Source: Hydrogenophilus sp. (GTDB lineage Bacteria > Pseudomonadota > Gammaproteobacteria > Burkholderiales > Rhodocyclaceae). Taken from it: a DNA stretch of 64,000 nucleotides. The notes under the pieces are model-generated. The model saw only the letters and a list, made by a program, of their open reading frames with translations. It was not told the origin of the DNA and ran no database searches. Positions 1-64,000 of the stretch are shown in pieces (the stretch's first letter is position 1; every line of letters starts with the position of its first letter). The position numbers and the translations under genes are program-made. The stretch lies in the NCBI GenBank assembly GCA_026416515.1, contig JAOAEZ010000004.1, positions 41,227-105,226 on the forward strand. The letters are read 5' to 3'.

Positions 1-441
1 CTGGGCCAAATGGCGTTGGGCCACATGGGCCACCTCATGAGCCACCACTGCAGCCAGCTCTCCCTCATCCTCTGTCGTCGCGATCAAGCCGGTATGAACC
101 CCTAAAAATCCCCCCGGCAACGCCACCGCGTTAATCGAATCGTCGCGCAACACGAACCCCTCCACCTGCGGCACGGAGCGTCCCAACGCCCTCAGCCCTT
201 CCGCCACCCGTCTCGCCAACAACGTCACATACTCCTGTACTCCTGGCTCATCCCAAAACCCTGGTTCTCGCTCGCGAAGAGTCACCATCAACCTTCGGCC
301 CCACCGCTCCTCCTCTCGCTGGGAAAGGACGGCTGCCCCTGCTGCCCCCAAATCGGGCAACTCCCACCCCCATCCTTGGGTCGTCACCAACCACCCCATC
401 AACCCCACCATCCCTCGTCGTCGTCCGTTGCACCCATCCAC
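1..441 (-). CDS. M48 family zinc metalloprotease, BepA/YfgC-like (5' part; runs off the window's left edge)
   Basis: Not in the ORF track; translated by hand from GTG at 441: ...WELPDLGAAG...FVLRDDSINAVALPGGFLGVHTGLI...ELAAVVAHEVAHVAQRHLAQ. Contains HExxH plus the LPDLG and INAxAxPGG motifs of BepA; GGAG lies upstream. Confidence 0.88.
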   Translation of the reverse strand, partial: MDGCNGRRRGMVGLMGWLVTTQGWGWELPDLGAAGAAVLSQREEERWGRRLMVTLREREPGFWDEPGVQEYVTLLARRVAEGLRALGRSVPQVEGFVLRDDSINAVALPGGFLGVHTGLIATTEDEGELAAVVAHEVAHVAQRHLAQ

Positions 442-544
442 GCTCGCTCTCCCCCGAATACCCTCTCTGTTAATTGTAGTCTCACTCTCTCGCCTTGAAC
501 CTCGCGTACAATCTAACCCTCGCGCCCCTCTCCCCTCGCCCTCG

Positions 545-991
545 ATGGATCCCTTTCCCTCTCTCCCCAGCCCCTCCCGGAGCCGTCGTCTCGCCGCGCT
601 CCTCTACGAACTCATGCTCCTCATCGGCCTTGTCGGCGGTGGTGTCGTCCTCCCCTGGACCCTCCTCGCCCTCCTCCTGCACTGGGTTCCTCCCCCCCCT
701 CTCCTCTGGGCGCATCTGCTCTCCCTCCTAGCCCTCTACTTCACCTGGCAATGGCGGCGGCGTGGCGCCACCCTCGCCATGAAGACCTGGCGCCTTCGTC
801 TCGTTGCCGCCGACGGGACCCCTCCCACCTGGAAAGCCTGCTGGCTTCGCTTTCTCTGGGCCTGGCCCTCGCTCCTGACCGGCATAGGGTTTCTCTGGTC
901 TCTCTGGGACCCGGAGCGCCTCTGGTTGCACGACCGTCTCTCCCGCACCCGGCTCATTCTCTGGAACTGGGACACTCCCTCCTCCTCCTGA
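545..991 (+). CDS. RDD family membrane protein
   Basis: RRLAALLYE...TLAMKTWRLRLV...R.LW...LHDRLSRTRL pattern with hydrophobic helices; ATG at 545 preferred over the track start at 428. Confidence 0.85.
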   Translation: MDPFPSLPSPSRSRRLAALLYELMLLIGLVGGGVVLPWTLLALLLHWVPPPPLLWAHLLSLLALYFTWQWRRRGATLAMKTWRLRLVAADGTPPTWKACWLRFLWAWPSLLTGIGFLWSLWDPERLWLHDRLSRTRLILWNWDTPSSS

Positions 992-1152
992 TCGCGCTTT
1001 CCCTCCTGCGGGGCGCATCCCCTCCCCCGATCATCTCCCCCCATTTATAGAATCCCTCAACCCTCCTCCCCCTCCCTCCCATCCTCCCATTCCCCCTCCT
1101 TATCCCTCCCAATGGAAATTTCGCCTCATCCACTGCACAGCTCCTTTCCTCT

Positions 1153-1407
1153 ATGGAACGGACCGCACCAAAGCCGCCACTGAAAGCGAAATCGGATCGC
1201 CCTACGACCTCGTCGGCGTTCAACTGCCCTCGGCAAGCGCCCCTATGGCTTCATCGCTCTCGTCGGGCAACGTCGCCCTCAGCAACGCTGGGCTCAAATC
1301 CCCCTTCCCCTCAAACCTCACCCCTCGGGCACCTCCTCTTCGTCGCGCTCCTTGGCTATATGCTGCTCCTCACCCTTAGCCCTCGCAGCACGCGGCGGCG
1401 GGTTTAA
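1153..1407 (+). CDS. Small hypothetical protein or degraded gene with a C-terminal hydrophobic helix and basic tail
   Basis: 84-aa ORF filling the RDD-trxC gap and ending HLLFVALLGYMLLLTLSPRSTRRRV; no clear RBS. Confidence 0.25.
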   Translation: MERTAPKPPLKAKSDRPTTSSAFNCPRQAPLWLHRSRRATSPSATLGSNPPSPQTSPLGHLLFVALLGYMLLLTLSPRSTRRRV

Positions 1408-1505
1408 CGTCTCCCCCTTTCCCAACCACACCGTTTTTTCTTCCCCCTTGGCTATTCTCCTCCTCGCCCCCAGATTCTTCTCATTCTCTCTGATTGGAGC
1501 CACGC

Positions 1506-1940
1506 ATGACCCTGCACCTCATCCCCTGTCCTGACTGTCACACCCTCAACCGTCTCCCTGCCCAACGGCTTGACGACGGTCCCATCTGTGGTCGATGCAA
1601 AGCGGCGCTTCTTCCCGCCACCCCTTTCCCCGTCGACGCCGCGCACTGGGAACGGCACGTCCTCGAACCCACTCTTCCTGTTCTCGTCGATTTCTGGGCC
1701 CCCTGGTGCGGTCCCTGCCGGGCGATGGCTCCTCAATTCGCCCTCGCCGCCCAACAAAATCCCCGTGTTCACTTCATCAAACTCGATACCGACGCCCACC
1801 CCGACATTGCCCTGCGCCACGCCATCCGCAGCGTTCCCACCCTTATCCTCTTCCTCGACGGGCGCGAAATCGCCCGCCAAAGCGGCCTGCTCGACGCCCA
1901 CGCCCTCACCCACTGGCTACGGCACTACCTCCCTCGCTAG
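1506..1940 (+). CDS. trxC: Thioredoxin 2 (zinc-finger thioredoxin)
   Basis: N-terminal CPDC...CGRC zinc site, WCGPC active site, GGAG before ATG 1506. Confidence 0.93.
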   Translation: MTLHLIPCPDCHTLNRLPAQRLDDGPICGRCKAALLPATPFPVDAAHWERHVLEPTLPVLVDFWAPWCGPCRAMAPQFALAAQQNPRVHFIKLDTDAHPDIALRHAIRSVPTLILFLDGREIARQSGLLDAHALTHWLRHYLPR

Positions 1941-1946
1941 CCACTC

Positions 1947-62616: not shown

Positions 62617-62628
62617 TGCTCGCCCGAT

Positions 62629-62702
62629 GCGGGTGTAGTTCAATGGTAGAACATCAGCTTCCCAAGCTGAGAACGTGGGTTCGATTCCCATCACCCGCTC
62701 CA
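62629..62702 (+). tRNA. tRNA-Gly(CCC)
   Basis: GCGGGTG acceptor stem, TCAGC-TTCCCAA-GCTGA anticodon arm, GGTTCGATTCC T-arm, TCCA end; 74 nt. Confidence 0.97.
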
Positions 62703-62712
62703 GCGCTACAGC

Positions 62713-62737
62713 ACCCAGGAAAATTCCTGGGTTTTTT
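62713..62737 (+). terminator. Rho-independent terminator after tRNA-Gly
   Basis: ACCCAGGAA-AA-TTCCTGGGT followed by a T-tract. Confidence 0.85.
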
Positions 62738-62767
62738 GTTTTTGTGTGGCCTCCTTCTCAATCCCTG

Positions 62768-63859
62768 ATGAATTCTAGTGACCTTTCCGCGCTCCCTCTT
62801 CCCGCTCCGGAACTCATCGCCCAATTTGCCCCTCGTCTGCTCGCCTGGCACGCCCGCTGGGGGCGCCACCACCTTCCCTGGCAAACCCGTGATCCCTACC
62901 GGGTCTGGCTTGCCGAAATCATGCTTCAACAAACTCAAGTCGCCACTGTTCTTCCCTACTACCAGCGTTTTCTCGACCGTTTTCCCACCGTCGAAACCCT
63001 TGCCACGGCCCCGCTCACCGAAGTCCTGGCGCACTGGTCTGGGCTTGGCTATTACGTCCGCGCTCGGCAACTCCACCGCGCGGCGCAGCAGATCGTCGCG
63101 ACCGGTACCTGGCCCCAGACCGCCCAGCAATGGCAGCGCCTTCCTGGTATAGGCCGCTCCACCGCTAACGCCATCGCCGCGTTTACCGCCAACGAACGCC
63201 GTCCCATCCTAGATGGCAACGTTGCCCGTCTTCTCATCCGCCTTCTTGCTCTAAGCCGTCCCCTCAACACCCCCTCTCTTCGCGCCCACCTCTGGCGTAT
63301 TGCCGAACAGCTTCTCCCCGTCGACTCCACCGTGATGCCTCGCTACACCCAAGCGCAAATGGACCTCGGTGCCTTGATCTGCCGTCGTGTGCTCCCCCAG
63401 TGCGACCGTTGTCCTCTCACCGACCTCTGCCGCGCCCACGCGCTTCGCCTCACCGCCCAACTCCCTATTCCCGCGCCGCGATCTCCCCTCGAAACGCTGC
63501 ACCTCTCCTTTGCCGCCTACCGCTTCGGCGAACGCTACTACTTTACCCGCCGTCCCGAGCGAGGTCTCTGGCCTGGCCTCTACTCCTTTCCCCAAACGGC
63601 CGACCCCCCGCCTCCTGGCCGTTGGCATCCCCTCCTCACCGAAACCCTTCCCCCTCACCGTCTCACCCATCGGCAACTTCACCTTACCCTAACCACCTTC
63701 TCTCCGCTTCACCTCCCGGATCTTCCCACGCCGCATGTCCCCTCCCCAAGCGCCGCTTGGCTCACCCTTCCAGAAGCCCTCGCCGCCGGTCTTCCCCGCC
63801 CGCTCACCCGTTGGGCCCAGCGTACGCTCGCGCAATCCCCCCTTCTCCCTCTCCCCTGA
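62768..63859 (+). CDS. mutY: A/G-specific adenine glycosylase
   Basis: GRHHLPWQ..DPYRVWLAEIMLQQTQV, WSGLGYY.RAR, HhH LPGIGRSTA, LDGNV, C-X6-C-X2-C-X5-C [4Fe-4S] motif. Confidence 0.96.
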   Translation: MNSSDLSALPLPAPELIAQFAPRLLAWHARWGRHHLPWQTRDPYRVWLAEIMLQQTQVATVLPYYQRFLDRFPTVETLATAPLTEVLAHWSGLGYYVRARQLHRAAQQIVATGTWPQTAQQWQRLPGIGRSTANAIAAFTANERRPILDGNVARLLIRLLALSRPLNTPSLRAHLWRIAEQLLPVDSTVMPRYTQAQMDLGALICRRVLPQCDRCPLTDLCRAHALRLTAQLPIPAPRSPLETLHLSFAAYRFGERYYFTRRPERGLWPGLYSFPQTADPPPPGRWHPLLTETLPPHRLTHRQLHLTLTTFSPLHLPDLPTPHVPSPSAAWLTLPEALAAGLPRPLTRWAQRTLAQSPLLPLP

Positions 63860-63917
63860 ATCTCTCCCCCCTTCCTCCGCTACAATACCCTTCTGATCCT
63901 CTTCTGGGCGGTCTCCT

Positions 63918-64000
63918 ATGTCCCACTCTTCTTCTATCCCCTCCGCTCCTCCCTCTACCCTCACCCTTGCCTTTGGCATGGGCTGCTTCTGGGGTGCCCA
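63918..64000 (+). CDS. msrA: Peptide-methionine (S)-S-oxide reductase (5' fragment)
   Basis: Translated by hand: MSHSSSIPSAPPSTLTLAFGMGCFWGA, containing the GCFWG active-site motif; truncated by the window edge. Confidence 0.8.
   Translation, partial: MSHSSSIPSAPPSTLTLAFGMGCFWGA

Follow-up and report, generated by a model that had tools for sequence, protein, structure and literature searches.

Why does one strand of a bacterial chromosome segment carry more C than G in every kilobase, and why do most genes of that segment, dnaK, rho and recA among them, lie on the same C-rich strand? We addressed this question in a window of 64,000 nucleotides (the whole stretch of DNA analysed; G000:C34:41227-105226) from the metagenome bin of a betaproteobacterium, Hydrogenophilus sp., here called G000 (1.72 Mb in 90 contigs; estimated completeness 76%, with about a quarter to a third of the genes expected to be missing). 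The sample is a hot-spring metagenome in which, according to an independent assembly of the run, the organism is present at ~60-80x. The initial annotation of the window had offered two readings: either the lineage has an inverted skew with a C-rich leading strand, or the region is mostly transcribed head-on to replication; both were taken to point to unusual replication or repair mutagenesis. Our analysis favors, with a probability of roughly 0.8, a chromosome-wide, replication-associated mutational strand asymmetry of normal polarity, whose amplification, about 3.5-fold, is peculiar to this lineage.

The + strand of the window holds 11505 A, 25174 C, 14530 G and 12791 T (62.0% GC), corresponding to a GC skew of -0.268 and a C:G ratio of 1.73, and the skew is negative in 64 of 64 one-kilobase windows (range -0.02 to -0.47). 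Three earlier hand counts of C:G in single lines of sequence (30:5, 31:9 and 23:8) proved exact when recounted. Genes were called with a self-trained dicodon gene finder that has separate classes for G-rich and C-rich coding strands; a crude GC3-GC2 open reading frame (ORF) caller was rejected in its favor, having made many false G-rich antisense calls in the window. The dicodon calls place 41 genes on the + strand and 8 on the - strand (~84% on the C-rich strand), close to the 49 of 57 coding sequences first reported, and amount to 47.4 kb of coding length on + versus 11.7 kb on -. The claim that the + strand is C-rich whichever strand codes was borne out by 4-fold degenerate sites, on whichever strand the genes lie, and by intergenic DNA: across contig C34, in + coordinates, the skew is -0.54 at 4-fold sites of + genes, -0.29 at those of - genes and -0.32 in intergenic DNA.

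The same holds for the genome as a whole. All bin contigs of at least 20 kb have an absolute GC skew of 0.17-0.34, with a sign that stays constant over up to 533 kb; the full skew is kept even in stretches where the G-rich strand carries no more than 0-20% of coding bases, and one sign is common to the 4-fold sites of + genes, those of - genes and intergenic DNA. Its sign is thus independent of gene strand.

We then compared its strength with that of G001, a closed genome of the same genus (a chromosome of 2,223,143 bp, or 2.22 Mb, plus a 65.6-kb contig) that shares 848 reciprocal-best orthologues with the bin at a median identity of 68%. Median absolute skew per 20 kb is 0.249 in the bin (minimum 0.128, maximum 0.452) versus 0.072 in G001. 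Twelve pieces of a third genome, G002, range from 0.01 to 0.11; the median is 0.035 (maximum 0.124) for 55 dnaK loci of other beta- and gammaproteobacteria and 0.031 (maximum 0.155) for 80 metagenome loci, so that the 135 comparison loci from other bacteria together show medians of 0.03-0.035 and a maximum of 0.155. These comparisons suggest that the strand bias of the bin, about 3.5-fold stronger than that of G001, was amplified in its lineage alone. In a published survey most high-GC bacteria lie near zero skew and Borreliaceae form the extreme (PMC6042203).

The polarity of the skew can be read at the origin. The sole sign change in the bin lies on contig C45, where cumulative skew reaches its minimum at 121,407 and polarity passes from - to +. 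The candidate oriC at this point (G000:C45:121409-121923; L259:2410-2924) occupies the 514 bp of AT-rich sequence (42% GC) that follow gyrB, with two perfect and two one-mismatch DnaA boxes (genome density 0.11 per kb), in a neighborhood ordered gyrB<dnaN<dnaA and then rpmH>rnpA>yidC>mnmE. The gap between rpmH and dnaA, where the candidate does not lie, measures 25 bp. Given a position downstream of gyrB, the dnaA-dnaN-gyrB operon would be transcribed towards the origin, head-on, and the layout in G001 is identical. Because the skew changes from - to + across oriC, the strand running with the fork is the G-rich one.

G001, in which both the origin and the terminus switch are seen, has a textbook profile: the skew minimum falls at 8.4 kb, just past dnaA-dnaN-gyrB and adjoining DnaA boxes, the maximum at 1.148 Mb, and all three rRNA operons run along the G-rich strand (218 kb on +, 1093 kb on + and 1695 kb on -). 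The G-rich strand carries 56% of coding bases in G001 and ~56% in the bin, reaching 64-65% in the two largest bin contigs (832 kb). Leading or lagging class, assigned to bin genes from skew alone, is the same in 788 of 848 orthologues (93%); synteny blocks have been shuffled between replichores, and orientation to the fork has always been kept. Further, the share of bin genes on the G-rich strand rises from 59% of all orthologues to 79% of those at least 90% identical. The leading strand of the bin is thus G-rich, and its polarity and genome-wide gene orientation are canonical. The 60 orthologues whose strand class has changed are 57-58% identical, versus 67-71% otherwise, which fits accelerated change after a strand switch.

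Most of the window maps to 119-175 kb of G001, in inverse orientation, within a corresponding stretch (0-200 kb) where no more than 26-45% is leading. The 36 window genes with a G001 orthologue comprise 30 that both genomes carry as lagging, 5 that both carry as leading and 1 that has changed; dnaK, rho and recA are also lagging in G001. Because 35 of 36 orthologues keep their strand class, the arrangement is ancestral, dating from the common ancestor of the genus, and the window is by this comparison an ordinary, old cluster of lagging-strand genes that face the fork. That the region is mostly head-on is therefore literally true, and ordinary. What the numbers describe (35 of 36 genes; 56% genome-wide) is the case that the annotation itself had named as counting against it, a local cluster of lagging-strand operons in a canonically oriented genome. 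The placement of dnaK, rho, recA and an RpoH-like sigma factor on the C-rich strand was confirmed with Pfam, and the features of the window are as follows.

1-64000, + strand: C-rich replichore strand, probably lagging-strand sequence (skew -0.27; sign constant; orthologue strand class).
3889-7773, + strand: grpE-dnaK-dnaJ, on the C-rich (lagging) strand (Pfam GrpE, HSP70, DnaJ; G001 orthologues at 1277-1282 kb, also lagging).
10050-11309, + strand: rho, on the C-rich strand (Pfam Rho_N, Rho_RNA_bind, ATP-synt_ab; lagging in G001 too).
14016-17123, - strand: SNF2-family helicase (RapA-like), on the G-rich strand (Pfam SNF2-rel_dom, Helicase_C; leading in both genomes).
17270-18169, + strand: sigma-70 family factor (RpoH-like), on the C-rich strand (Pfam Sigma70_r2, r4).
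19530-23893, - strand: AcrB-type RND pump and upstream partner, on the G-rich strand (Pfam ACR_tran; dicodon call).
23935-25056, + strand: recA, on the C-rich strand (Pfam RecA; 87% identical to G001; lagging in both).
26290-27729, + strand: rpoN (sigma-54), on the C-rich strand (Pfam Sigma54 AID, CBD, DBD).
62103-62702, both strands: tRNA-Arg(CCG) on - and tRNA-Gly(CCC) on + (ARAGORN, Rfam).
62768-63859, + strand: mutY (adenine glycosylase), apparently intact (TIGR01084, 297 bits, above cut-off).

A threonine dehydratase (Pfam) also lies on the + strand. The longest MutY frame begins within tRNA-Gly(CCC) (62629-62702), overlapping it at 62675-62702, and the ATG at 62768 is the likelier start.

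The amplified skew also differs in type from that of the closed relative. The causes of bacterial strand asymmetry are still debated, with deamination, polymerase error and selection all under discussion. Composition at 4-fold sites, in leading-strand coordinates, is as follows.

G001: A.09-.12, C.35, G.43-.44, T.10-.13; purines 52-55%.
G000: A.21-.23, C.18-.23, G.44-.52, T.07-.12; purines 65-73%.

At 4-fold sites on the leading strand of the bin, G/C and A/T are thus both ~2.3, and G/A and C/T are both ~2.1-2.3. Expressed as log-ratio replication terms, R_GC is.85 and R_AT +.83 in the bin, as against R_GC.23 and R_AT -.11 in G001, whose AT skew has the opposite sign. The gene-strand term T_GC, calculated from the same 4-fold composition, is -0.18 in the bin versus +0.01 in G001. 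Over all sites A and T are about equal, and the whole-contig AT skew of the bin is ~0. The net change at 4-fold sites of leading-strand sequence is a loss of C and a gain of A. Because transitions leave the purine content of a strand unchanged, either strand-asymmetric transversions (pyrimidine to purine in leading-strand sequence) or selection would be needed to produce this pattern. Calculated purine content is ~56% in leading genes versus ~41% in lagging genes; the purine bias of the bin follows replication, not genes. Unusual replication or repair mutagenesis, as first suggested, is supported by the size and type of the skew, and gene orientation lends it no support.

We propose that the amplified bias would consist mainly in the loss of C from leading-strand sequence, that is, of G from lagging-strand sequence, and that the lost C would be replaced mostly by A at 4-fold sites, leaving the leading strand purine-rich. 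Purines, mainly guanine, on the leading-strand template would be turned into pyrimidines, possibly when A is inserted opposite an abasic site or a damaged G, or through purine-purine misinsertion. Such a process would act atop the usual deamination of cytosine on the exposed lagging-strand template, and heat may aggravate both. In E. coli lacking mismatch repair, transversions are commoner when the purine is on the leading-strand template (bioRxiv 10.1101/346874), which is the direction seen in the bin. The mutation-accumulation lines resemble the bin in that transversions with the purine on the leading-strand template are favored; they differ in that their ratios are 1.15-1.7, with little compositional effect, whereas the equilibrium purine:pyrimidine ratio of the bin implies ~2-2.7.

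A number of observations weigh against this proposal. The 4-fold sites are saturated (G000/G001 identity.37 versus.31 if independent), so that a direct reading of substitution paths from them failed, and the paths are taken from equilibrium composition rather than observed. ORF-free intergenic DNA has a GC skew of 0.23 and an AT skew of only +0.08, with 58% purines. Strong canonical C>T and A>G asymmetry is present at 2-fold sites, C>G and A>G stand out among the net fluxes at codon positions 1-2 for either gene class, and C>T is prominent at nonsynonymous sites; the purine pattern is consequently clean at 4-fold sites alone, with a possible contribution from selection on codons. When the bin is compared with an independent assembly of the same sample over window positions 4001-24000, 26 of 33 differences are transitions versus 7 transversions, although these variants are unpolarised and too few for a mutation spectrum. 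The terminus lies outside the assembled sequence of the bin, and no repair gene loss accounts for the skew pattern. Finally, proxies for growth temperature in G001 indicate moderate thermophily (16S GC 58.7%; IVYWREL index 44-55 C), so that the two genomes are not told apart by heat alone. An explanation by thermophily only was rejected on these proxies, the strand bias itself distorting the IVYWREL index for the bin. Among the transitions between the two assemblies in this 20 kb, 20 of 26 are C/T on the + strand.

The inventory of repair and replication genes that had been suggested as a check on the skew was run. The bin retains mutY, fpg, nth, mutS, mutL, a MutT-like Nudix protein, mfd, recG and nfo, as well as dnaE, and lacks family-1 ung. 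MutY keeps its catalytic Glu and Asp and its Fe-S cysteines in an alignment to E. coli MutY, and its C-terminal domain aligns with those of G001 and G002. Fpg and MutY are 48.5% and 53% identical to their G001 counterparts, the 9th and 14th percentiles of orthologues, and are thus among the more diverged. Loss of 8-oxoguanine repair or mismatch repair was rejected as the cause given the presence of mutY, fpg, the mutT-like gene, mutS, mutL, mfd, nth and nfo. No family-1 ung was found in the bin, G001 or G002, and its loss was likewise rejected, since a gene missing from all three genomes cannot explain a difference between them. By Pfam, no DNA repair gene is among the 60 G001 genes lost from conserved synteny in the bin. 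Those lost include three ODP-type di-iron proteins, a di-haem cytochrome c peroxidase, TamA/TamB, several transposases, an indolepyruvate/pyruvate:ferredoxin oxidoreductase-like protein and RseA/RseB-like proteins.

The 76% complete bin yielded neither exonuclease III (ExoIII, xth) nor a Y-family polymerase, both of which are present in G001 and G002. In G001, xth lies at C1:1323772-1324545 and the Y-family polymerase, the only one of the genus, at 1145742-1146176; the genes that flank both are inside assembled bin contigs, at synteny breakpoints. The absences of xth, dinB and dnaQ, three among ~17 genes tested, are no more than incompleteness predicts.

These two genes bear on the alternative that survives best, which we nonetheless consider unlikely: amplified cytosine damage on the single-stranded lagging-strand template, in which heat-accelerated deamination, uracil excision and bypass of abasic sites would yield C>T, C>A and C>G in leading-strand sequence. 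C is indeed the base lost from leading-strand sequence, with net flux through all three routes of C loss at constrained sites; 2-fold sites show a strong C>T signal, the organism lives in a hot spring, xth and the Y-family polymerase were not found in the bin and are present in both comparison genomes, and the direction agrees with the classical model in the form in which it is cited (Bhagwat 2016, as cited). By contrast, exposure of the non-transcribed strand should deplete C on coding strands, and the gene-strand term runs the opposite way, toward less G. Further, nfo and two other EEP-family nucleases are retained, the absences of xth and dinB fall within incompleteness, and G001 also seems moderately thermophilic. 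Compared with cytosine damage, a guanine lesion that is repaired on transcribed strands may account slightly better for the lower G content of coding strands, seen in G000 only.

A more specific form of the proposed template-purine asymmetry, which we regard as doubtful, is that a free-living proteobacterium with DnaE as its only replicative polymerase has altered the chemistry of its replication or lesion bypass, perhaps by losing epsilon, or ExoIII together with the Y-family polymerase, or all of these, so that leading-template transversions dominate neutral evolution and purine asymmetry arose within one genus. One alpha subunit (dnaE) each was found in G000, G001 and G002 with TIGR00594, no PolC-specific model having been run.

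A change in replisome fidelity alone seems less probable still: dnaQ would have been lost, mismatch repair would remove transition mismatches, and leading-strand-biased transversion errors would set composition. In the 76% complete bin, TIGR01406 finds no canonical dnaQ, only two paralogues that are both also in G001, whereas its dnaQ matches in G001 (C1:1108113-1108847) and G002 score 281-285 bits. The linkage gloB-methyltransferase-rnhA-dnaQ/mutS is kept in G001, G002 and three further relatives; in the bin it is broken, with rnhA (C22:248938-249450) and mutS (C22:142233-145004) 105 kb apart within one 299-kb contig and no dnaQ remnant at the rnhA or the mutS junction. The bin also has the longer branch, ~1.8 times that of G001, outgroups being nearer to G001 in 26 of 26 Rho and 61 of 62 DnaK comparisons, and it retains mutS and mutL. 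Yet dnaQ is close to essential in model proteobacteria, the gene could sit in the unassembled part of the bin, and a 1.8-fold rise in rate is small for a proofreading-deficient lineage. In E. coli, moreover, strand biases weaken rather than strengthen without proofreading (PMC13250602). A search for a G000-type dnaQ state elsewhere was negative, in that the six closest DnaQ relatives and the 80 metagenome loci all have ordinary skew; the protein collection holds G000 proteins only from the bin and so has no bearing on the absence. An uncalled 1.1-kb stretch that adjoins mutS (C22:141115-142232; L258:1616-2733) carries on its - strand a frame of radical-SAM (MoaA-like) type interrupted by one in-frame stop, which marks a pseudogene or else an error of assembly.

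We consider it very improbable that transcription or selection drives the skew through codon preference, purine or pyrimidine loading of mRNA, or avoidance or attraction of Rho. A gene-strand component does exist, T_GC of -0.18 marking coding strands as poorer in G than replication alone predicts, and 4-fold sites show the purine pattern more cleanly than intergenic DNA does. However, the sign is equal for both gene strands and intergenic DNA, and the full skew persists where 0-20% of genes are on the G-rich strand. Pyrimidine-rich RNA attracts Rho, and the purine bias of Bacilli follows genes rather than replication (PMC13323073); lagging genes of the bin are 59% pyrimidine on the coding strand, the opposite of such a gene-based, Rho-avoiding purine bias.

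Inverted polarity, with a C-rich leading strand and window genes co-directional with replication, can be set aside almost entirely. In its favor are the ~84% of window genes, including dnaK, rho, recA and rpoH, on the C-rich strand, and five contigs (459 kb) with 57-75% of coding bases on that strand. It is refuted by the switch from - to + across an oriC with DnaA boxes, by the share of coding on the G-rich strand (64-65% in the two largest contigs, 56% genome-wide, 79% among the most conserved proteins) and by the 93% match in orthologue class with G001, whose rRNA operons run with the G-rich strand.

The bin does hold foreign sequence. Its two 16S pieces, on contigs C8 (336-1836) and C39, share just 67% and 78% identity with the G001 16S; these small contigs are therefore mis-binned and foreign to the genus, and placement of the bin by 16S failed; 48 of 68 bin contigs under 5 kb have no nucleotide similarity to G001. 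An artefact of assembly, binning or sequencing damage is nevertheless the least credible account of the skew, because assembly leaves sequencing errors strand-symmetric, the skew stays uniform along 533- and 299-kb contigs that are syntenic with G001 in blocks and flips exactly at oriC, and the window was recovered, with 0-8 differences per contig, in an independent assembly of the run.

The asymmetry of the bin resembles the replication GC skew of the Lobry type in its constant sign along a replichore, its independence of gene strand, its switch at oriC and its excess of G over C on the leading strand, and it resembles Borrelia in that codon and amino-acid usage are split by strand (PMC6042203). 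It differs in occurring at ~60% GC, when the survey finds most high-GC bacteria near zero skew, and in a strength confined to one species of a genus. Unlike the classical G+T (keto) skew, it shows no excess of T over A on the leading strand: A exceeds T at 4-fold sites, and the canonical direction is found only at 2-fold sites. The dominance of G and A on the leading strand at synonymous sites, clear at 4-fold sites and weak in intergenic DNA, recalls the purine asymmetry (PAS) of Firmicutes, Fusobacteria and Tenericutes, which Saha et al. 2014 found only in subsets of these three PolC-bearing phyla and linked to strong gene-strand bias (PMC4070872). The bin departs from PAS in having a single dnaE-type alpha subunit (as judged without a PolC-specific model), a weak gene-strand bias of 56-59% and a whole-sequence AT skew of ~0; strong gene-strand bias (more than ~70% leading) is absent from both genomes, at 56% of coding bases. 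Purine bias in B. subtilis follows genes (PMC13323073), whereas that of the bin follows replication. The bin and G001 thus form a natural contrast, sharing fork-relative gene order, oriC layout and most repair genes while differing ~3.5-fold in skew and in the sign of A/T, and so offer a within-genus setting in which the cause of strand asymmetry could be pinned down.

The bias is strong enough to split codon usage and amino-acid composition by strand. In the bin, lagging-strand proteins differ from leading-strand proteins by -4.7 percentage points in Val, -3.2 in Gly, -2.9 in Glu and -1.6 in Arg, and by +3.6 in Leu, +2.9 in Pro, +1.8 in Thr and +1.5 in Ile, differences ~3 times those of G001. 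Among Leu codons, TTG makes up 54% in leading genes and CTC 57% in lagging genes. The valine share, 9.7% in leading-strand versus 5.1% in lagging-strand proteins, illustrates how far mutation pressure can reshape a proteome.

Lagging genes, 43% of those in the bin (536 of 1,258 classified), are the source of pyrimidine-rich mRNAs that average 36.7% C and 23.2% G. Of the 78-nt windows in these mRNAs, 7.5% have at least 40% C together with no more than 15% G, versus 0.1% in lagging genes of G001 and 0 in leading genes. The remark that C-rich, G-poor transcripts resemble Rho utilisation (rut) sites was therefore apt, lagging mRNAs being strongly rut-like in composition. The accompanying suggestion that Rho specificity is altered gained no support, as Rho is 91% identical to its G001 counterpart, the 98th percentile of the 848 orthologues. 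For annotation, such genomes need strand-aware gene models, as the many false antisense genes returned by a naive GC3-based caller illustrate.

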